NCBI RefSeq assembly: GCF_054482525.1
Contig: NZ_CM137006.1
Length of the DNA stretch: 64,000 nt
Reading direction: 5' to 3' (one strand)
A program made the translations under genes and the position numbers. Below the pieces are notes generated by a model that was not told where the DNA came from, ran no database searches, and saw nothing but the letters and a program-made list of their open reading frames with translations. Below are positions 1 to 60,269 of the stretch, piece by piece (within the stretch, counting starts at the first letter, position 1; the number at the start of each line of letters is the position of its first letter).

Positions 1-1
1 C

Positions 2-1351
2 GTTGGCATTCTGGGGGCACTGAAAGCCGCAGGTGGACTGTGGTTTGGCTGGAGTGGCGAAACAGGGAATGAGGATCAGCCGCTAAAAAAGGTGAAAAAG
101 GGTAACATTACGTGGGCCTCTTTTAACCTCAGCGAACAGGACCTTGACGAATACTACAACCAATTCTCCAATGCCGTTCTCTGGCCCGCTTTTCATTATC
201 GGCTCGATCTGGTGCAATTTCAGCGTCCTGCCTGGGACGGCTATCTACGCGTAAATGCGTTGCTGGCAGATAAATTACTGCCGCTGTTGCAAGACGATGA
301 CATTATCTGGATCCACGATTATCACCTGTTGCCCTTTGCGCATGAATTACGCAAACGTGGGGTGAATAATCGCATTGGTTTCTTTTTGCATATTCCTTTC
401 CCGACACCGGAAATCTTCAACGCGCTGCCGACATATGACACCTTGCTTGAACAGCTTTGTGATTATGATTTGCTGGGTTTCCAGACAGAAAACGATCGTC
501 TGGCGTTCCTGGATTGCCTTTCTAACCTGACCCGCGTCACGACGCGTAGCGCAAAAAGCCATACGGCGTGGGGCAAAGCGTTTCGAACGGAAGTTTACCC
601 GATCGGCATTGAACCGAAAGAAATAGCGAAACAGGCTGCCGGACCACTGCCGCCAAAACTGGCGCAACTTAAAGCGGAACTGAAAAACGTACAAAATATC
701 TTTTCTGTCGAACGGCTGGATTATTCCAAAGGTTTGCCGGAGCGTTTTCTCGCCTATGAAGCGTTGCTGGAAAAATATCCGCAGCATCATGGTAAAATTC
801 GTTATACCCAGATTGCACCAACGTCGCGTGGTGATGTGCAAGCCTATCAGGATATTCGTCATCAGCTCGAAAATGAAGCTGGACGAATTAATGGTAAATA
901 CGGGCAATTAGGCTGGACGCCGCTTTATTATTTGAATCAGCATTTTGACCGTAAATTACTGATGAAAATATTCCGCTACTCTGACGTGGGCTTAGTGACG
1001 CCACTGCGTGACGGGATGAACCTGGTAGCAAAAGAGTATGTTGCCGCTCAGGACCCAGCCAACCCGGGCGTTCTTGTTCTTTCGCAATTTGCGGGAGCGG
1101 CAAACGAGTTAACGTCGGCGTTAATTGTTAACCTCTATGATCGTGACGAAGTTGCAGCTGCGCTGGATCGTGCATTGACTATGTCGCTGGCGGAACGTAT
1201 TTCCCGTCATGCAGAAATGCTGGACGTTATCGTGAAAAACGATATTAACCACTGGCAGGAGTGCTTCATTAGCGACCTAAAGCAGATAGTTCCGCGAAGC
1301 GCGGAAAGCCAGCAGCGCGATAAAGTTGCTACCTTTCCTAAGCTTGCGTAA
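2..1351 (+). CDS. otsA: trehalose-6-phosphate synthase OtsA, 5'-truncated by window start
   Basis: ORF 92..1351 translation matches OtsA; reading frame is open back to position 2 (VGILGALKAAGGLWFGWSGETG...), so the gene starts upstream of the window. Confidence 0.93.
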   Translation, partial: VGILGALKAAGGLWFGWSGETGNEDQPLKKVKKGNITWASFNLSEQDLDEYYNQFSNAVLWPAFHYRLDLVQFQRPAWDGYLRVNALLADKLLPLLQDDDIIWIHDYHLLPFAHELRKRGVNNRIGFFLHIPFPTPEIFNALPTYDTLLEQLCDYDLLGFQTENDRLAFLDCLSNLTRVTTRSAKSHTAWGKAFRTEVYPIGIEPKEIAKQAAGPLPPKLAQLKAELKNVQNIFSVERLDYSKGLPERFLAYEALLEKYPQHHGKIRYTQIAPTSRGDVQAYQDIRHQLENEAGRINGKYGQLGWTPLYYLNQHFDRKLLMKIFRYSDVGLVTPLRDGMNLVAKEYVAAQDPANPGVLVLSQFAGAANELTSALIVNLYDRDEVAAALDRALTMSLAERISRHAEMLDVIVKNDINHWQECFISDLKQIVPRSAESQQRDKVATFPKLA

Positions 1352-1357
1352 GTGCGG

Positions 1358-1786
1358 TTAATCTCCCGTAAGTGGAACTAACAGCACATCGACCTCACTT
1401 GAGGCAATCACTCTTTTCGCCGAGCAGGATGCTCGCGAAAAGAAACTGTGATTGTGATTACCGCAAATAACCAAATCGAAATGATATTTGCGACAAACCT
1501 CCAGAATATGTTCGCTTAATTCACCGTAGGCAATAAACGTCTCGTCAACGGGATACCCCGCATCCTGAATTAACTTATCAAGAAAGCTTTGTGTTTCTTC
1601 CTGCATCACGCTGCGTAAATCTTCAAGCATCGGCGCGGCTAATTGATTGTACATTTCCGGGTCGGAAGCGAGAGTAATTAAACTGATGTGTCCCTTTACT
1701 GGCCTGGCGATAGAAACCGCTTTTGCCAGCAGTTGCTGACTTTCCGGTGTAACCGCAACGGCGACAAGAATATTGCTATAGCTCAT
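1358..1786 (-). CDS. uspC: universal stress protein C
   Basis: 142-aa ORF with Usp-family sequence; convergent with otsA as in E. coli. Confidence 0.9.
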   Translation of the reverse strand: MSYSNILVAVAVTPESQQLLAKAVSIARPVKGHISLITLASDPEMYNQLAAPMLEDLRSVMQEETQSFLDKLIQDAGYPVDETFIAYGELSEHILEVCRKYHFDLVICGNHNHSFFSRASCSAKRVIASSEVDVLLVPLTGD

Positions 1787-2289
1787 AACCTGTTCCTTAT
1801 TCTGTGAACTTCAGGTGACATTAAAGCTTTACTCCTAATGGAGAATCGACGCAATCCCAACTCAGTCAAACAGGTAAATATTAGTCTGATTATTAGTAAA
1901 TACAATTAATCAATCACTCTTGGTGATCATATGATTTCAACTGTAATTATAAGAAAACAATATACTGATTCCCCATATTAAACAAGTGGTTAATATATGT
2001 AAAACATTTTATTAACATTAAGTTGATTGTTGCCTTTCTTTGTATTTAATTAGTTTGTTGTGCGGTAAGTGTCTGTTAAAAAATAGCTTATCTGGTATTG
2101 CATTAAAGCAATTATTTATAGCAGATGATTATTTACGGTGAGTTATTTTAACTGTGCGCAACATCCCATTTCGATTATTCCTGTTTCATTTTTGCTTGCT
2201 AGCGTCGCGAAAAAACTTTTTAACAGATTGAAATACACCCAAAACAAAAGTATGACTTATACATTTATGTTAAGTAATTGAGCGTTTTG

Positions 2290-2305
2290 TGTGATCTGTA
2301 TCACA
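2290..2305. promoter_or_regulatory. CRP binding site in flhDC regulatory region
   Basis: TGTGATCTGTATCACA matches the CRP consensus TGTGA-N6-TCACA exactly; centred about 72 bp upstream of the inferred flhDC transcription start. Confidence 0.6.
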
Positions 2306-2333
2306 CATTATTGAAAATCGCAGCCCCCCTCCG

Positions 2334-2369
2334 TTGTATGTGCGTGTAGTGACGAGTAAAGTTGCGTCG
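2334..2369 (+). promoter_or_regulatory. putative flhDC sigma70 promoter (-35 TTGTAT, 17-bp spacer, -10 TAAAGT)
   Basis: hexamers read from sequence; places transcription start about 198 nt upstream of the flhD ATG, consistent with the long flhD 5'UTR known from the literature. Confidence 0.4.
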
Positions 2370-2567
2370 ATTTAGGAAAAATCTTAGATAAGTGTAAAGA
2401 ACCCCTTCTATTTGTAAGGACTTATTAAATCCCAAAAAGGGGCTCTGCCTATTGCAGCTTATCGCAACTATTCTAATGCTAATTATTTTTTACCGGGGCT
2501 TCCCGGCGACATCACGGGGTGCGGTGAGACCGCATAAAAATAAAGTTGGTTATTCTGGGTGGGAATA

Positions 2568-2918
2568 ATGCATACCTCCGAGTTGCTGAAACACATTTAT
2601 GACATCAACTTGTCATATTTACTACTTGCACAGCGTCTGATTGTTCAGGACAAAGCGTCCGCTATGTTTCGTCTCGGCATAAATGAAGAAATGGCGACAA
2701 CGTTAGCGGCACTGACTCTTCCGCAAATGGTTAAGCTGGCAGAAACCAATCAACTGGTTTGTCACTTTCGTTTTGACAGCCACCAGACGATTACTCAGTT
2801 GACGCAAGATTCCCGCGTTGACGATCTCCAGCAAATTCATACCGGCATCATGCTCTCAACACGCTTGCTGAATGATGTTAATCAGCCTGAAGAAGCGCTG
2901 CGCAAGAAAAGGGCCTGA
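2568..2918 (+). CDS. flhD: flagellar master regulator FlhD
   Basis: ORF 2559..2918 matches FlhD; ATG at 2568 gives the 116-aa form [22 protein letters not shown]; the in-frame GTG at 2559 is an alternative start. Confidence 0.93.
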
Positions 2919-2920
2919 TC

Positions 2921-3499
2921 ATGAGTGAAAAAAGCATTGTTCAGGAAGCGCGGGATATTCAACTGGCAATGGAATTGATCACCCTTGGCGCTCGTTTGCA
3001 GATGCTGGAAAGCGAAACACAGTTAAGTCGCGGACGCCTGATAAAACTCTATAAAGAACTGCGCGGAAGCCCACCGCCGAAAGGCATGCTGCCATTCTCA
3101 ACCGACTGGTTTATGACCTGGGAACAAAACGTTCATGCTTCGATGTTCTGTAACGCATGGCAGTTTTTACTGAAAACCGGCTTGTGTAATGGCGTCGATG
3201 CGGTGATCAAAGCCTACCGTTTATACCTTGAACAGTGCCCGCAAGCAGAAGAAGGACCGCTGCTGGCATTAACCCGTGCCTGGACATTGGTGCGGTTTGT
3301 TGAAAGTGGATTACTGCAACTTTCCAGCTGCAACTGCTGCGGCGGCAATTTTATTACCCACGCTCACCAGCCTGTTGGCAGCTTTGCCTGCAGCTTATGT
3401 CAGCCGCCATCCCGGGCAGTAAAAAGACGTAAACTTTCCCAGAATCCTGCCGATATTATCCCACAACTGCTGGATGAACAGAGAGTACAGGCTGTTTAA
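2921..3499 (+). CDS. flhC: flagellar master regulator FlhC
   Basis: 192-aa ORF matching FlhC, with Cys-rich C-terminal region; 2 bp after flhD. Confidence 0.95.
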
Positions 3500-3524
3500 C
3501 TTATACGGTGTGGCGCAACATTCC

Positions 3525-3558
3525 AGCAGCGGTAACGACGTACCGCTGCTTTTTTTTG
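3525..3558 (+). terminator. rho-independent terminator after flhC
   Basis: 10-bp perfect stem AGCAGCGGTA/TACCGCTGCT, 6-nt loop, followed by T8. Confidence 0.6.
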
Positions 3559-3625
3559 CCCCAATCGCGCGTTAACGCCTGACGACTGAACATCCTGTCA
3601 TGGTCAACAGTGGAAGGATGATGTC

Positions 3626-4509
3626 GTGCTTATCTTATTAGGTTACCTGGTTGTTCTCGGTACAGTTTTCGGCGGTTATTTGATGACCGGTGGAAGCCTT
3701 GGAGCACTCTATCAACCCGCTGAACTGGTGATTATTGCCGGTGCAGGGATTGGGTCATTTATCGTCGGCAATAATGGCAAAGCGATTAAAGGCACGCTGA
3801 AGGCGCTGCCGTTGCTGTTTCGTCGCTCCAAATACACCAAAGCAATGTATATGGATCTGCTGGCTCTGCTTTATCGGTTGATGGCGAAATCGCGGCAGAT
3901 GGGGATGTTTTCGCTGGAACGTGATATTGAAAATCCCCGTGAGAGCGAGATCTTCGCCAGCTACCCACGCATCCTTGCGGATAGCGTCATGCTTGATTTT
4001 ATCGTCGATTATCTGCGTCTGATTATCAGCGGTCACATGAACACCTTCGAAATCGAAGCCCTGATGGATGAAGAGATTGAGACGCACGAAAGCGAAGCAG
4101 AAGTCCCGGCGAACAGTCTGGCGCTGGTCGGGGACTCACTTCCGGCGTTTGGTATTGTCGCGGCTGTGATGGGGGTCGTTCACGCGTTAGGTTCAGCCGA
4201 TCGTCCTGCCGCCGAGCTGGGGGCGCTTATCGCACATGCGATGGTGGGGACTTTCCTCGGTATTTTATTGGCTTACGGATTTATTTCCCCATTAGCGAGT
4301 GTTTTACGTCAGAAAAGCGCCGAAACCAGCAAAATGATGCAGTGCGTCAAAGTCACACTGCTTTCTAATCTGAACGGTTACGCACCGCCTATCGCCGTTG
4401 AGTTCGGTCGCAAAACGCTCTATTCCAGCGAACGTCCGTCGTTTATTGAACTGGAAGAGCATGTGCGTGCGGTGAAAAATCCGCAACAACAGACGACAAC
4501 CGAGGAAGC

Positions 4510-40840: not shown

Positions 40841-41449
40841 GCCGTGTGATAAGTTCAAGTTTGCTTCAGAAGATTCGAAATCTGTTGAACTATCATTGAA
40901 CTGTAGGCCGGATGAGGCGTTTTGAACTGCACCCCAAATGTTGGACATAATCTGACATCTGAAGGTGCAGTTTATGAAACATTCATTTGAAGTAAAACTT
41001 GCCGCTGTAAATCACTACCTGGCTGGTCATGCAGGCATCATTTCTACGGCAAAACTCTTTCAACTTTCTCACACCAGCCTCTCACACTGGATTAATCTTT
41101 TTCTTCTTCACGGTCCTCGGGCACTGGATTGCAGACACAAGCGTAGCTATTCTCCTGAAGATAAACTTTGCGTGGTTCTTTATGCTCTCGGGCATTCTGA
41201 GTCTCTACCCCGGGTAGCTGCCCGGTTTAACATTCCCAGCCACAACACGGTTAAAAACTGGATAAAAGGCTACCGCAAATCTGGTAATGAGGCCTTTATC
41301 AGGCGCAGGAAGGAGAAAAGCATGACCCGTTCTGATGATACCCATGAAAACGAGGCAAACATGACGCCGGAAGAGATGAAGAATGAGCTGCGTTATCTTC
41401 GCGCAGAAAATGCATATCTGAAAGCCATGCAGGAGCATCTCCTGGAAAA

Positions 41450-42354
<905 letters not shown>

Positions 42355-46866: not shown

Positions 46867-48678
46867 ATGAATCCACAATTGTTACGCGTAACAAATCGAA
46901 TCATTGAACGTTCGCGCGAGACTCGCTCTGCTTACCTCGCCCGGATAGAACAAGCGAAAACTTCGACCGTTCATCGTTCGCAGTTGGCATGTGGTAACCT
47001 GGCACACGGTTTCGCTGCCTGCCAGCCAGAAGACAAAGCCTCTTTGAAAAGCATGTTGCGTAACAATATCGCCATCATCACCTCCTATAACGACATGCTC
47101 TCCGCGCACCAGCCTTATGAACACTATCCAGAAATCATTCGTAAAGCCCTGCATGAAGCAAATGCGGTTGGTCAGGTTGCGGGCGGTGTTCCGGCGATGT
47201 GTGATGGTGTCACCCAGGGGCAGGATGGAATGGAATTGTCGCTGTTAAGCCGCGAAGTGATTGCGATGTCTGCGGCGGTGGGGTTGTCCCATAACATGTT
47301 TGATGGTGCGCTGTTCCTCGGAGTGTGCGACAAGATTGTTCCGGGTCTGACTATGGCAGCCCTGTCGTTTGGGCATTTGCCTGCGGTGTTTGTGCCGTCT
47401 GGACCGATGGCAAGCGGTTTGCCAAATAAAGAAAAAGTGCGTATTCGCCAGCTTTATGCCGAAGGTAAAGTGGACCGCATGGCATTACTGGAGTCAGAAG
47501 CCGCGTCTTATCATGCGCCGGGAACATGTACTTTCTACGGTACTGCCAACACCAACCAGATGGTGGTGGAGTTTATGGGGATGCAGTTGCCAGGCTCTTC
47601 TTTTGTTCATCCGGATTCTCCGCTGCGCGATGCTTTGACCGCAGCCGCTGCGCGCCAGGTTACACGCATGACCGGTAATGGTAATGAATGGATGCCGATC
47701 GGTAAGATGATAGATGAGAAAGTGGTGGTGAACGGTATCGTTGCACTGCTGGCGACCGGTGGTTCCACTAACCACACCATGCACCTGGTGGCGATGGCAC
47801 GCGCGGCCGGTATTCAGATTAACTGGGATGACTTCTCTGACCTTTCTGATGTTGTACCGCTGATGGCACGTCTCTACCCGAACGGTCCGGCCGATATTAA
47901 CCACTTCCAGGCGGCAGGTGGCGTACCGGTTCTGGTGCGTGAACTGCTCAAAGCAGGCCTGCTGCATGAAGATGTCAATACGGTGGCAGGCTTTGGTCTG
48001 TCTCGTTATACCCTTGAACCATGGCTGAATAATGGTGAACTGGACTGGCGGGAAGGGGCGGAAAAATCACTCGACAGCAATGTGATCGCTTCCTTCGAAC
48101 AACCTTTCTCTCATCATGGTGGGACAAAAGTGTTAAGCGGTAACCTGGGCCGTGCGGTTATGAAAACCTCTGCCGTGCCGGTTGAGAACCAGGTGATTGA
48201 AGCGCCTGCGGTTGTTTTTGAAAGCCAGCATGACGTTATGCCGGCCTTTGAAGCGGGTTTGCTGGACCGCGATTGTGTCGTTGTTGTCCGTCATCAGGGG
48301 CCAAAAGCGAACGGAATGCCAGAATTACATAAACTCATGCCGCCACTTGGTGTATTATTGGACCGGTGTTTCAAAATTGCGTTAGTTACTGATGGACGAC
48401 TCTCCGGCGCTTCAGGTAAAGTGCCGTCAGCTATCCACGTAACACCAGAAGCCTACGATGGCGGGCTGCTGGCAAAAGTGCGCGACGGGGACATCATTCG
48501 TGTGAATGGACAGACAGGCGAACTGACGCTGCTGGTAGACGAAGCGGAACTGGCTGCTCGCGAACCACACATTCCTGACCTGAGCGCGTCACGCGTGGGA
48601 ACAGGACGTGAATTATTCAGCGCCTTGCGTGAAAAACTGTCCGGTGCCGAACAGGGCGCAACCTGTATCACTTTTTAA
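46867..48678 (+). CDS. edd: phosphogluconate dehydratase (Entner-Doudoroff)
   Basis: 603-aa ORF matching Edd. Confidence 0.97.
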
Positions 48679-48714
48679 GACGACAAATTTGTAATCAGGC
48701 GAGAGAAAACTCTG

Positions 48715-49356
48715 ATGAAAAACTGGAAAACAAGTGCAGAATCAATCCTGACCACCGGCCCGGTTGTACCGGTTATCGTGGTAAAAAAACTGGAACACGC
48801 GGTGCCGATGGCAAAAGCGTTGGTTGCTGGTGGGGTGCGCGTTCTGGAAGTGACTCTGCGTACCGAGTGTGCAGTTGACGCTATCCGTGCTATCGCCAAA
48901 GAAGTGCCTGAAGCGATTGTGGGTGCCGGTACGGTGCTGAATCCACAGCAGCTGGCAGAAGTCACCGAAGCGGGTGCACAGTTCGCAATTAGCCCGGGGC
49001 TGACCGAGCCGCTGCTGAAGGCTGCTACCGAAGGGACTATTCCTCTGATTCCGGGGATCAGCACTGTTTCCGAACTGATGCTGGGTATGGACTACGGTTT
49101 GAAAGAGTTCAAATTCTTCCCGGCTGAAGCTAACGGCGGTGTGAAAGCCCTGCAGGCGATCGCGGGTCCGTTCTCCCAGGTCCGTTTCTGCCCGACGGGT
49201 GGTATTTCTCCGGCTAACTACCGTGACTACCTGGCGCTGAAAAGCGTGCTGTGCATCGGTGGTTCCTGGCTGGTTCCGGCAGATGCGCTGGAAGCGGGCG
49301 ATTACGACCGCATTACTAAGCTGGCGCGTGAAGCTGTAGAAGGCGCTAAGCTGTAA
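48715..49356 (+). CDS. eda: KDPG / KHG aldolase
   Basis: 213-aa ORF matching Eda. Confidence 0.97.
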
Positions 49357-49364
49357 AAGTCAAA

Positions 49365-49392
49365 ATGCCCGATCGAGGATCGGGCATTTTTG
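49365..49392. terminator. bidirectional rho-independent terminator between eda and purT
   Basis: 10-bp perfect stem ATGCCCGATC/GATCGGGCAT with a T-run after and an A-run before. Confidence 0.7.
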
Positions 49393-49410
49393 TAGCGTTT
49401 TTCGCCGGGG

Positions 49411-50589
49411 TTAAGCTTGTACTTTTATCTGTGCTGCGGCGTGCTTTGCGCGCTCAATCGCTTCATCAACACTCTCTGCAGTAGCCAGTGCCACCCCCAG
49501 ACGACGGCTGCCATCAATTTCCGGCTTACCAAATAAACGAATCTGTAGGCCTGCGCCTACGGCATTCTGCACATTATCAAACGTGACATTCTGACTGGTC
49601 AGTTGTGGCAGGATAACGGCAGAAGCTGCAGGACCATACTGACGGATCCCGCCAACCGGAAGTCCGAGGAAGGCACGTACATGCAGGGCAAACTCTGAGA
49701 GATCCTGAGAAATTAACGTCACCATCCCGGTATCATGTGGACGAGGGGAGACCTCACTGAAAATCACCTCATCACCACAGACAAACAGCTCGACACCAAA
49801 CAGACCATAACCGCCCAGTGCCAGCACCACTTTACGGGCAATCTCTTGCGCACGTTCAAGGGCAAGCTGGCTCATTTGCTGTGGTTGCCAGGATTCACGG
49901 TAGTCGCCATCTTCCTGGCGATGACCTACTGGTGCACAGAAATGGACGCCATCCACCGCGCTGACGGTTAGCAGGGTAATTTCGAAGTCAAACTTAACGA
50001 CGCCTTCAACAATTACGCGGCCCGCTCCGGCGCGACCGCCTTGCTGAGCGTACTCCCATGCATGAGCAAGTTGCTCTGCAGAACGAATAAACGTCTGCCC
50101 CTTGCCGGAGGAACTCATCACCGGTTTAACAATGCAGGGATAGCCGATTTCAGCAACCGCCTCGCGGAAAAGGTTTTCGTTATCGGCAAAACGATAAGTG
50201 GAAGTGGGCAGCTGCAGCTCTTCTGCCGCCAGGCGACGGATACCCTCGCGATTCATCGTTAATTTCGTTGCGCGCGCGCAGGGGACAACATTCAGTCCTT
50301 CCTCTTCAAGTTGGATCAGCATATCGGTGGCAATAGCTTCGATCTCCGGCACGATATAATGTGGTTTTTCCAGTTCAACCACACGGCGTAATGCATCACC
50401 ATCAAGCATATTAATGACATGGGAGCGATGCGCGACATGCATGGCTGGTGCGTCGGCATAGCGATCAACGGCAATCACTTCTACGCCGAGACGCTGACAC
50501 TCGATTGCCACTTCTTTACCCAGTTCACCGGAGCCTAATAACATCACGCGAGTTGCTGCCGGACGCAGCGCAGTGCCTAATAACGTCAT
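49411..50589 (-). CDS. purT: formate-dependent phosphoribosylglycinamide formyltransferase PurT
   Basis: 392-aa ORF, ATP-grasp family, matches PurT. Confidence 0.95.
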
Positions 50590-50626
50590 AACGAATATCC
50601 CCTGATTAATTCCGCGCGCAGTATAA

Positions 50627-50642
50627 ACGAAAACGTTTGCGC
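50627..50642. promoter_or_regulatory. PurR box upstream of purT
   Basis: reverse complement GCGCAAACGTTTTCGT matches the PurR operator consensus ACGCAAACGTTTTCNT; 38-53 bp upstream of the purT start. Confidence 0.75.
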
Positions 50643-50687
50643 GTGTCTTTATTGCTGATGTTGATTTCCCAACCGAAAAGAAATATA

Positions 50688-50703
50688 CTGTATAAAATCA
50701 CAG
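50688..50703. promoter_or_regulatory. LexA (SOS) box upstream of yebG
   Basis: CTGTATAAAATCACAG fits CTGT-N8-ACAG, 20 bp upstream of the yebG ATG. Confidence 0.8.
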
Positions 50704-50722
50704 TTATTATGAGAGGCTGCAA

Positions 50723-51013
50723 ATGGCGGTTGAAGTTAAATACGTAGTCATTCGTGAGGGCGAAGAGAAAATGTCGTTTACCAGCAAAAAGGAAGCCGAT
50801 GCTTATGACAAAATGCTTGATACGGCGGATCTGCTTGACACCTGGCTGACAAATTCTCCAGTGCAAATGGAAGACGAGCAACGTGAAGCCCTTTCGCTAT
50901 GGCTGGCAGAACAAAAAGATGTGCTTAGCACCATTCTGAAAACCGGCAAATTACCGTCCCCACAGGTCGTCGGTGCTGAATCCGAAGAGGAAGATGCCTC
51001 ACACGCGGCCTGA
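50723..51013 (+). CDS. yebG: SOS-inducible protein YebG
   Basis: 96-aa ORF MAVEVKYVVIREGEEKMSFTSKKEADAYDK. Confidence 0.9.
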   Translation: MAVEVKYVVIREGEEKMSFTSKKEADAYDKMLDTADLLDTWLTNSPVQMEDEQREALSLWLAEQKDVLSTILKTGKLPSPQVVGAESEEEDASHAA

Positions 51014-51031
51014 AGCAACTTGCGCTCCTGA

Positions 51032-51436
<405 letters not shown>

Positions 51437-51439
51437 TGG

Positions 51440-51560
51440 CTTCTGATAATTCGATTGACCGTTGGCGGATGCGGCGCGAATGCCTTGTCCGCCCCACAAC
51501 GCACCACAATCGTAGGCCTGAGAAGACGCAACAGCGTCGCATCGGGCAATCAGCATCAAA
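51440..51560. repeat. REP-like palindromic elements between yebF and yebE
   Basis: GGATGCGGCGCGAATGCCTTGTCCGCC and CGTAGGCCTGAGAAGACGCAACAGCGTCGCATCGGGC motifs. Confidence 0.5.
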
Positions 51561-51762
51561 CAGTGCTACTCAAAACGTCAAACTACTTTCACCTAAAATA
51601 CCCTTATCACCTGATATACAGTGAACACCTTACCTGGCGCGAATTTCTTTGAATAACGGCCTACCGACCCGCTTATTTGCGCATCTTTTGTCTCGATATA
51701 CATTTTCTGACATCCTCATCCGCTATGCTACAGGCACTAAAAATGGTTATTGAGGAGCAAAT

Positions 51763-52422
51763 ATGGCTAACTGGTTAAATCAACTGCAATCCTTGCTTGG
51801 GCAAAGCAGTTCTTCTGCCTCCTCGTCTGCGGATCAGGGATTGGGCAAACTTTTAGTGCCAGGCGCATTAGGCGGACTGGCTGGGCTGCTGGTCGCAAAT
51901 AAATCAGCACGTAAACTTCTTACGAAATATGGCACCAACGCGTTACTGGTTGGCGGCGGAGCGGTCGCGGGTACGGTGCTGTGGAATAAATACAAAGATA
52001 AAATTCGCGCGGCGCATCAGGACGAACCGCAGTTTGGCGCGCAAAGTACGCCGCTGGATGAGCGTACGGAACGTTTGATCCTTGCGCTGGTCTTTGCCGC
52101 TAAAAGTGATGGTCATATTGATGCCAAAGAACGTGCGGCAATCGACCTGCAATTGCGTGAAGCCGGCGTGGAAGAACAGGGGCGTGTACTCATTGAGCAG
52201 GCAATCGAACAACCGCTGGATCCACAACGCCTGGCTACCGGGGTCCGCAATGAAGAAGAGGCGCTGGAAATCTATTTCCTGAGCTGCGCGGCTATTGATA
52301 TTGACCATTTTATGGAACGCAGTTACCTGAATGCACTGGGTGACGCGCTGAAAATCCCCCAGGATGTTCGTGACGGCATTGAACGCGATCTCGAACAGCA
52401 AAAACGTACTTTGGCGGAATAA
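51763..52422 (+). CDS. yebE: DUF533-family inner membrane protein YebE
   Basis: 219-aa ORF matching YebE. Confidence 0.9.
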
Positions 52423-52585
52423 TTCCGCTCTCTGGATAGCCTGAAGTTGACTATTTCGGGCTATCCAGAACCGCACAGCCATTTGAGCAGGCTGATTTTC
52501 TCTGTCTGCATAACATTCGATATCCGCGCCATTACCTGTCATCATGTGACTGCTCCCCGCCCTGTCGGGCGAGGCTTCCCACTTC

Positions 52586-53762
52586 TTAAGCCGCAACCGT
52601 CTGTGTGACGGATTTACGCTGGCCTCCATGGGCAGAAACGACGAGTCCCGCCGCTTGTAATTCCAGTATGCCCTTGCGTTTGATGTTGAGCGCCGCGTTG
52701 ATATCGCGGTCATGTTCAACTCCACACTCTGGACACTGCCAGATGCGCTTATGTAATGGCATCTCCGACATTTTGTGACAGCAGCAGTGGCAGGTCTTCG
52801 AACTGGCGAACCATTGATCCAGTTTCACCAGATGCACACCTTTCTCTGTTGCTTTGTATTCCAGTTTTGTGATGAATCCAGACCATCCAGCATCGCCTAT
52901 CGCACGAGCCAGATGGTGATTTTTCATCATATTTGCCGTTTTCAATGTCTCGACAATTACCGCTTGGTTTTCGTCAACAATTGCGCGAGATAACTTGTGC
53001 TGGAAATCGGCACGGGCACTGGCTACCCGTTCGTGAACGGCTGCAAGTTGTATTCTGGCTTTGCGCCTGTTTGCGCTCCCTTTTTTCTTACGGGACAGTG
53101 CTTCCTGCTTCCTGCTTCCGGCGCAGGTTGCGACTTGCATTGATTAGGTGGCGGGGACTGGCAATTTTATTGCCGTCCGATTTGATGACAAAATGCGCCA
53201 GCCCCATATCCAGCCCTGTCACATTTGATATCAGTGCGGGCTTTGCCGGCGCTTCCATCCCGTCGTCACAGAGTAACGACGCGTAGTATTTCCCGGTTGC
53301 GCTGCGGCTCAACGTGATACTTTTCAGCATTCCCGTAATTTCACGATGTAAACGCGCTTCAATCGGCAAGATTTTCGGTATTTTTATCGCACCATCAAGG
53401 ACTTTTATGCCAACACAATGATAGCTCGATTGTCTGCCGTGTTTACTTTTAAAGGTTGGTTTACCTGCTTTCAGTTTCGGATTGAAAAAGTTAGAAAAAG
53501 CCACGTCGAGGTTAATTACCGCCTGCTGCAACGCAATAGAATCATATTCTTTAAGCCATCCATACCGGCGGGATTTCTTCGCCACTGCAAGCAGTGGTTT
53601 GAGGTCTTTACGCGGGTTTAAATTTACGCGGTGCCGCTGGTAAGAATGTTTCTTGATATGCAGAGCTTTGTTGTACGCAAAACGCACTGCACCGAACTGG
53701 GCGTTGATAAATTCAGCCTGTTCTGGTGTCGGATAGATGCGTACTTTTGTTGCTCTTAACAT
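52586..53762 (-). pseudogene. tnpB: tnpB (IS605 OrfB / RNA-guided nuclease family), split by a frameshift
   Basis: ORF 53088..53762 (N-terminal part, HTH and RuvC-I GLDMGL) and ORF 52586..53140 (RuvC-II IVETL, zinc finger CHCC...CPEC, RuvC-III DRDINAA) are adjacent and in different frames; the break coincides with three tandem copies of a 7-bp unit at 53100..53120. Confidence 0.75.
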
Positions 53763-53818
53763 AATCAGCGCTCATTGATATAATGCTTTTATTTTAACAC
53801 TTTAGGTGAATATATCAA

Positions 53819-54232
53819 TTGAGTAATCATGATGATTTACTGGCGGGATTTCTCCGCAAACGACACAGTGTCAGTAAGCTGGTTGTGCACCTTATTTTTA
53901 CGACAAAGTATCGACGCAAACTATTCGACAGTCAGATGATCGCTCAGTTGCGTGAGGCTTTTGGCTCCGCTGCGGCAAAGCTTGAATGCGAAATTATTGA
54001 GATGGACGGGGAGCCAGACCATGTACACCTGCTGGTTGCCTACCCGCCAAAACTGGCGGTCAGTGTGATGGTCAATAATTTAAAATCGGTATCATCACGT
54101 TTGCTACGCCAGCAGAACGCGCATTTACGTATGCAGAGTAAAACGGGGCTTTTGTGGTCGAGATCGTACTTTGTCTGTAGCACCGGAGAGGCAACGATTG
54201 AAACGCTCAGAGCCTACGTTCAGAGTCAGTAA
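53819..54232 (+). CDS. tnpA: IS200/IS605-family Y1 (HUH) transposase TnpA
   Basis: 137-aa ORF with HVHLL (HUH) motif and C-terminal catalytic Tyr context WSRSYF; apparent TTG start 9 nt downstream of an AGGTGA ribosome-binding site. Confidence 0.7.
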   Translation: MSNHDDLLAGFLRKRHSVSKLVVHLIFTTKYRRKLFDSQMIAQLREAFGSAAAKLECEIIEMDGEPDHVHLLVAYPPKLAVSVMVNNLKSVSSRLLRQQNAHLRMQSKTGLLWSRSYFVCSTGEATIETLRAYVQSQ

Positions 54233-54373
54233 ACACCTGATTGATCTTTAAAGCCCTGCGGGCTTTTCGCCTTATATCCCCGCCCGCATTGGGCGAGGGT
54301 TTACGGCGTTTTTCGCTAAGCAATGACTACCCTGTTTCGCTTGCATCTCCGGTGAGTTTTGCCACCCTTATAA

Positions 54374-57120
<2,747 letters not shown>

Positions 57121-60135: not shown

Positions 60136-60269
60136 ATCTGTTAAAAGCCAGAAGCATTCCTTTCGCTGACTTTATAGTCAACCATAACACACACTCTACT
60201 GTCTGAGTCCAGCATTTTTTAACATTCCTGTTAAGATTATGTGATCTTTAGCGCGGGAGGAAAATATTG

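Follow-up and report, generated by a model that had tools for sequence, protein, structure and literature searches.

A heptanucleotide repeat of variable unit number splits tnpB in an ISEc46 copy of one Escherichia coli clone

On the Escherichia coli chromosome analyzed here, a copy of the insertion sequence ISEc46 lies between yebE, which ends at position 52422, and ptrB, which starts at 54401, and its tnpB gene is divided into two open reading frames at a short tandem repeat. The arrangement raises the question of whether the repeat records a single accident that befell the gene, or whether its unit number continues to change and sets the reading frame of tnpB as it does so. The DNA under study was a stretch of 64,000 nucleotides from contig NZ_CM137006.1 (RefSeq assembly GCF_054482525.1), referred to throughout as the window, and all positions are those of the window. 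An earlier note, made from the letters of the sequence, had proposed that a recent slipped-strand duplication of one 7-bp unit inactivated TnpB and that the change was potentially reversible.

Several features identify the element as a member of the IS200/IS605 family (Table 1). RefSeq gives the tnpA product as 'IS200/IS605-like element ISEc46 family transposase', and the protein scored as a Y1 (HUH) transposase (NCBIfam NF033573, 142 bits against a cut-off of 55, over model positions 3-125 of 126). The two genes are divergent, with tnpA on the plus strand and tnpB running on the minus strand from 53762 down to 52586. K-12 is without ISEc46 at yebE-ptrB, and its empty site, CATCAT/CTAAGC (the slash marks the insertion point), indicates that no target duplication accompanied the insertion. 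The copy measures 1770 bp in this genome and 1763 bp with two repeat units, and a second, independent ISEc46 insertion has identical ends. A repeat search with a 6-bp seed found no inverted repeats at these ends; reading and folding instead revealed the same 8-bp stem, with one G-T pair and in the same orientation, just inside both of them. Absence of a target-site duplication, absence of terminal inverted repeats and subterminal hairpins at both ends are what is expected of the IS200/IS605 family.

The flanks of the element are also arranged as in this family. CTTAG adjoins the left end at two unrelated insertion sites (54316-54320 in the window and the locus L030), and the right-end flanks of these sites differ. 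Comparison of the two sites suggests that CTTAG serves both as insertion target and as target-adjacent motif of TnpB, which would be of the TTAG type. TnpB proteins of the IS605 family draw their guide from the right-end flank (PMC10097598; PMC10055086), and a constant CTTAG on the left with a variable flank on the right is the layout expected for such a TnpB. Judged by its position relative to the right end and by the logic of the IS605 family (PMC10097598; PMC10055086), ATGATGACAGGTAATGGCGC is the sequence that an ISEc46 omega RNA guide would carry. The omega RNA itself would come from the 3' end of tnpB together with the right end of the element, as the architecture of the family predicts (PMC10097598); a search of Rfam returned no match to an omega RNA family. 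The sole Rfam match, to mir-4662 (E = 0.52), was discarded as spurious, as it falls on the palindrome of the yebE terminator. This near-perfect palindrome of 39 nt (52431-52469), just downstream of yebE and present in K-12 as well, is probably the terminator of that gene.

Table 1. Coordinates of the ISEc46 copy, its genes and its flanks in the window.
Feature	Position	Strand	Description
Right-end flank	52526..52545	-	ATGATGACAGGTAATGGCGC on the tnpB-sense strand
ISEc46 copy (IS200/IS605 family)	52546..54315	- (tnpB orientation)	Right end 52546, left end 54315
Right-end subterminal hairpin	52555..52574	-	CCCCGCCC-TGTC-GGGCGAGG on the plus strand; read directly and folded
C-terminal tnpB reading frame	52586..53140	-	184-aa ORF from an internal ATG, starting MQVATCAGSRKQEALSRKKK...
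Gly326Cys	52780, C>A (coding G>T)	-	CHCCGH to CHCCCH, zinc-finger knuckle beside Cys325
N-terminal tnpB ORF	53088..53762	-	224 aa, ending ...RRKQEAGSTVP (stop); TnpB residues 1-219 plus 5 out-of-frame residues (GSTVP)
3 x 7 bp array of TGCTTCC	53099..53119	GGAAGCA on coding strand	Tract of variable unit number; one extra unit gives a +1 shift in tnpB
tnpA	53819..54232	+	137 aa here, Y1/HUH transposase
Left-end subterminal hairpin	54278..54298	-	CCCCGCCC-GCATT-GGGCGAGG on the plus strand; read directly and folded
Flanking CTAAG	54316..54320	-	CTTAG on the tnpB-sense strand, directly 5' of the left end

Tandem Repeats Finder reported a single array between 52500 and 54350, with a period of 7, 3.0 copies and 100% matches. 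It is the array that the earlier note had described as two copies of GCTTCCT followed by GCTTCCG at 53100-53120; that reading begins one base later, and all three copies are perfect when the unit is taken as TGCTTCC. Perfect two-copy arrays are frequent in the 64-kb window, where 39, 18 and 3 were counted for periods of 5, 6 and 7, respectively. Because the whole window contains no other perfect threefold tandem with a period between 5 and 9, this array is not a product of chance. Both minus-strand ORFs were found as the note had described them, each reading RKQEA across the array in a different frame. The extra unit moves the frame after Ala219, and a stop codon follows five codons on. The N-terminal ORF contains the HTH/WED/REC region and the RuvC-I residue Asp185, and the C-terminal frame has the RuvC-II residue Glu269, the zinc finger (Cys322/325/341/344) and the RuvC-III HDRD motif. 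Because the shift parts RuvC-I from RuvC-II, the zinc finger and RuvC-III, neither fragment would be able to form the active site. Moreover, the 184-aa C-terminal ORF is probably untranslated, since direct reading of CAGTCCCCGCCACCTAATCA-ATG revealed no Shine-Dalgarno-like sequence ahead of it. We infer from this separation of motifs that the nuclease has been lost and that tnpB is a pseudogene in this genome. RefSeq labels the 3- and 4-unit genes of PCN033, SCU-102 and 19KM1776 as 'frameshifted' pseudogenes.

Removal of one 7-bp unit yielded a single 389-aa ORF (...NASRNLRRKQEALSRKKKGSANRRKARIQ...), as had been predicted. The repaired protein scored as TnpB (NCBIfam NF040570, 342 bits against a cut-off of 100), had the Pfam domains HTH_OrfB_IS605, OrfB_IS605 and Cas12f1-like_TNB, and aligned over residues 4-380 with the ISDra2 TnpB structures 8BF8/8EXA (E = 2.6e-74). 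The HTH/WED-REC N-terminus, the split RuvC D-E-D and the CxxC...CxxC zinc finger that define a TnpB came together only with one unit removed, and the corresponding motifs were D185, E269, C322/325/341/344 and H348-D351. The claim that all motifs are intact in the repaired protein was thus upheld for the continuity of TnpB and not in full for the zinc-finger region, which departs from the consensus through the private substitution at 52780.

That substitution was present in no relative compared and in none of 476 complete-genome records with the segment, and it replaces a Gly that is at least 90% conserved in homologues. In a second private change in the element, C>A at 54231, a TCA codon of tnpA has become the stop TAA, so that the protein lacks the final 4 of the 141 residues found in PCN033; the change was seen in none of 452 complete-genome records with the segment, and the residues lost lie past the conserved Y1 domain. 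Matches to a 137-aa TnpA on short contigs were rejected as true truncations, these being genes cut by contig ends that accompany an intact 389-aa TnpB, and only one NCBI contig appears to have the real variant. Gly326Cys and the early tnpA stop look like decay of the IS copy in this genome. The 1.77-kb element makes up 2.8% of the 62.6 kb compared between the window and PCN033 and contains two of their nine SNPs, a distribution that is suggestive at best and on which we base no claim of enrichment.

What the gene looked like before the third unit is indicated by its relatives. In 19KM1831 the same ISEc46 allele occupies the same site with two units and is annotated with an intact 389-aa TnpB (WP_089563107.1). 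Two units are present in 465 of the 468 complete E. coli records with the segment; the exceptions are PCN033 and SCU-102 with three and 19KM1776 with four, and no record has a one-unit or a five-unit array. Identity bands from megablast could not separate perfect from imperfect repeats, because its linear gap costs allow split gaps, and other comparisons were used for that distinction. The window, PCN033, SCU-102 and 19KM1776 are 3-4 SNPs apart over 31.6 kb and therefore represent one clone; PCN033 belongs to ST597, serogroup O11 and phylogroup D (PMC9828833). That same-site intact copies have two units and a continuous 389-aa TnpB supports the proposal of a slipped-strand duplication that inactivated the gene. 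No homologue was found with three units in a continuous frame, the observation that the earlier note had named as one that would overturn its proposal. The duplication also deserves to be called recent, with 3-unit genomes differing from 2-unit members of the clone by 0-2 SNPs in 20 kb. As a separate observation, about 8.4 kb surrounding the IS (window about 47645-56017) are the same in 19KM1831 and the clone, barring the repeat and the private SNPs of the window, and outside this IS-bearing portion the two are about 1% divergent. To judge from this pattern, the shared segment looks like a recombination import between lineages.

The repeat itself has a prehistory in this lineage. The usual ISEc46 sequence at this position is an imperfect repeat, TGCTTTC TGCTTCC, which reads GGAAGCA GAAAGCA on the coding strand and encodes RKQKA. 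A T>C change in the lineage (A>G on the coding strand, AAA to GAA, Lys218Glu) made it a perfect 14-bp direct repeat. We aligned 114 proteins: 112 cluster representatives (76-99% identity) together with this allele and its 5-unit form. All 112 representatives have RKQKA or RKQKS, with no length variation at that point, and RKQEA occurs in this allele only. The repeat is imperfect in each of the 112, and the tract is not conserved across the gene family. The Lys218 allele, one residue away from this one, is the commonest ISEc46 TnpB and was found on 967 contigs; an exact look-up in the protein collection found neither its two +1-unit products nor its -1-unit product. For the Glu218 allele, 329 of 349 contigs are expanded. 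This link between a perfect repeat and instability is striking but traces to a single evolutionary origin, since all expanded alleles belong to one clone.

The same substitution may bear on the activity of the protein. Residue 218 aligns with Gln227 of ISDra2 TnpB, and Arg222 and Lys223 align with its Arg231 and Arg232; these three ISDra2 residues are reported to contact the omega RNA from RuvC helix alpha-1 (PMC10097598). Lys218Glu reverses the charge of an invariant Lys, and the 7 residues added in the 5-unit allele fall, by alignment, in the same RNA-binding helix. Because both changes strike this helix, it is doubtful that the Glu218 and 5-unit TnpB proteins are active. An AlphaFold2 model of the 5-unit protein, computed from a 35-sequence alignment, was unusable (mean pLDDT 47, pTM 0.31) and was left uninterpreted.

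To follow the unit number beyond the complete genomes, the TnpB products expected from 0 to 9 units were predicted and looked up as exact sequences in a collection of 15 billion proteins. The unit number of this coding repeat sets the frame: the predicted TnpB is intact at 2, 5 and 8 units and truncated otherwise. Public contigs, whose counts reflect sampling and clonal expansion and are not rates, numbered 20 for two units (389 aa, intact; all backgrounds), 190 for three (224-aa fragment), 98 for four (248-aa fragment), 37 for five (396 aa, in frame, with GSRKQEA added), three for six (231-aa fragment) and one for seven (255-aa fragment). The truncated products of 0 and 1 units, the 403-aa in-frame product of eight and the 238-aa fragment of nine were on no public contig. 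The contigs with the 3-unit product were drawn from NCBI, ENA and Logan assemblies. The in-frame 5-unit product (P0061, 396 aa) is annotated by NCBI as an ordinary TnpB, for example in L019 and L020 (10001-11191).

The DNA of representatives of each class was then read, and a regular expression found 2-7 perfect units, in every case at yebE-ptrB. Our designation of the tract as variable in number rests on Tandem Repeats Finder, on alignment with 2-, 3- and 4-unit relatives and on these 2-7 units in members of the clone. Over about 20 kb, the backbone of the loci with 2-7 units differs from the window essentially only at the private SNPs of the window. With 0-1 informative SNPs per 20 kb on one backbone, unit number varies among very close relatives. 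Two of the two-unit loci (L017 and L018) are on the clonal backbone, where they may simply be basal, and the others (L015, L016 and 19KM1831) belong to a backbone that shows about 145 differences in every 20 kb. The 4-unit 19KM1776 and the 7-unit L024 have the SNP 50686C in common, and the 5- and 6-unit loci lack it, so that expansion past four units must have taken place on at least two branches. The minimum number of repeat-change events is about five to seven, and these could span decades, which does not call for a truly high per-generation rate. No contraction was proven among the clone loci compared. The suggestion that the inactivation is potentially reversible is plausible, given the visible instability of the tract (2-7 units in one clone). 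Continuing change of the tract, the prior point mutation that perfected the repeat and the extra TnpB missense change in this copy had all been absent from the earlier note.

A prophage next to yebY was considered as a four-gamete marker for repeated change or reversion and was rejected, the four prophages concerned being independent lysogenies. They are lambdoid prophages with int, xis, recT and exonuclease VIII genes, located near window position 60136 in four members of the clone, L011, L012, L017 and L020 (positions 1-3900). Since they are 2-3% apart, this site has been lysogenised repeatedly.

Taken as a whole, the comparisons make it very probable that a slipped-strand expansion from two to three units broke tnpB, and that the tract is prone to slippage in this lineage only, where it now has 2-7 units. 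The A>G change on the coding strand would have created a slippage-prone tract by perfecting the heptanucleotide repeat. The first step, from two to three units, would have been taken early in the PCN033-like clone; it was presumably rare and is probably rate-limiting. Later steps would be easier with a longer tract, which went on changing to its present range of 2 to 7 units. MutS recognises 7-nt loops poorly, and slippage changes of 7 bp would for that reason tend to persist. The frames alternate along the series, from intact at two units to broken at three and four, intact with GSRKQEA at five and broken again at six and seven. In the model proposed for the IS605 family, TnpA excises the IS, and RNA-guided cleavage of the empty site by TnpB re-installs a copy (PMC10055086). 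Without TnpB, the IS copy would still be excisable by TnpA and would no longer be re-installed through RNA-guided cleavage of the empty site, and its retention would be weakened to that extent.

Other accounts of the split gene were weighed against this one. If the extra unit were a sequencing or assembly artefact, the same 21-bp array would hardly be present in two independent complete genomes and its product on 190 public contigs; the tract, at 21-49 bp, is also far shorter than a read, and we regard an error as practically inconceivable. Hardly more credible is the idea that the 3-unit allele continues to yield full-length TnpB, through programmed ribosomal frameshifting or through transcriptional slippage on the repeat. 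All that speaks for it is that the tract is open in both frames. Such a mechanism needs a +1 shift and the 4-unit allele would require a different one, whereas homologues keep one continuous frame, mostly of 389 aa. The 3-unit state is derived, and the conserved two-frame architecture typical of programmed frameshifting was not found, the split being restricted to one clone; the NCBI annotation is likewise that of a frameshifted pseudogene and not of a programmed frameshift. Taken literally, the earlier note implies a one-off duplication of 7 bp in an otherwise stable sequence. A single origin does suffice for the step from two to three units, and all 3-unit contigs read share the locus and the backbone, but 4-, 5-, 6- and 7-unit alleles on that same backbone contradict it and make it very improbable.

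A further reading is that of a true contingency locus, in which high-frequency reversible slippage turns TnpB on (2 and 5 units) and off (3, 4, 6 and 7 units) and is maintained by a benefit to the element or the host. Members of one clone do differ in unit number (2-7), and with it the reading frame opens and closes; the 5-unit allele, which is in frame, is fairly common (37 contigs), and at least two branches saw expansion beyond four units. E. coli, moreover, has a documented phase-variation device in the form of a heptanucleotide coding tract on a mobile element, that of neuO (PMC9659370). Against this, the tract is a recent accident of one allele, with 112 of 112 relatives lacking it, and contig numbers fall steadily with unit number (190, 98, 37, 3 and 1); in-frame lengths are not clearly enriched, and out-of-frame alleles prevail in the clone. 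In addition, the founding mutation replaced an invariant Lys aligned to an omega-RNA contact, ISDra2 Gln227 (PMC10097598), and the 5-unit insert is located in that RNA-binding helix too; the 'on' states may therefore be non-functional. The further damaging changes in the IS of this genome also look like decay. A maintained switch of this kind is quite unlikely on balance. We also think it unlikely that the tract is a newborn mobile contingency locus, with frequent slippage in both directions, active 2- and 5-unit TnpB and stochastically switched retention of the IS; if it were, it would be the first phase-variable TnpB and a natural series for assessing what TnpB is worth to its transposon in the wild.

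The closest precedent is neuO of prophage CUS-3 in E. coli K1, for which the account in PMC9659370 of Deszo et al. 2005 gives heptanucleotide-repeat phase variation. Within the compass of that account, the two tracts have in common the species, a 7-bp unit, a coding location, a mobile element, slipped-strand mispairing and a frame that is open only at unit numbers three apart. As portrayed there, the neuO tract is long and conserved, its phase variation has been shown by experiment, and a selected phenotype goes with it. The tnpB tract, in contrast, has 2-7 units, owes its origin in one allele to a point mutation, occupies a mid-gene position in an RNA-binding helix and is known from sequences alone. 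The VNTR loci used for MLVA of E. coli likewise consist of short tandem units that vary in number from one closely related isolate to the next; they occur in many lineages and serve as typing markers. The tract described here differs from them in being confined to one ISEc46 allele and in switching the frame of a nuclease gene. It resembles ordinary pseudogenisation of IS200/IS605 tnpB genes, which NCBI PGAP flags as 'frameshifted', in that tnpB is split and tnpA largely intact, but the lesion here is a repeat number that is still mutating and, as the 5-unit allele illustrates, is formally capable of reopening the frame. Relative to the TnpB of ISDra2 (PDB 8BF8, 8EXA and 8H1J), the reference RNA-guided nuclease, domain order and motifs are the same, whereas this copy is broken and has Glu where its relatives have Lys, at the position aligned with Gln227. 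We found no published account of the 7-bp tract in the literature on ISEc46 or on tandem repeats and slipped-strand events in TnpB.

The novelty is modest, in that a tnpB frameshift is routine and already flagged in RefSeq and the tract is a fresh example of a well-known mechanism. Even so, the locus captures the birth of a variable repeat, in which one substitution perfected 2 x 7 bp; the imperfect allele, on about a thousand contigs, is unexpanded. It further provides a natural allelic series in otherwise isogenic strains, with TnpB intact, broken, or intact with a 7-aa insert in the omega-RNA-binding helix. With this series one could probe whether an IS605-family element is kept or lost differently in nature once TnpB is gone, and how well the helix tolerates an insertion. 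The tract is also a potential high-resolution typing marker for the PCN033-like lineage. For annotation pipelines it holds a caution, as the 5-unit allele passes as a normal TnpB.

Elsewhere in the window, an IS1397-like insertion of the IS3 family (about 1.43 kb, 40924-42354) lies between lpxM and pyk and is missing from the three closest complete genomes. An IS1397 is present in the same lpxM-pyk region of 19KM1831, in the opposite orientation and with 98.3% identity, which suggests that this region is a preferred target.
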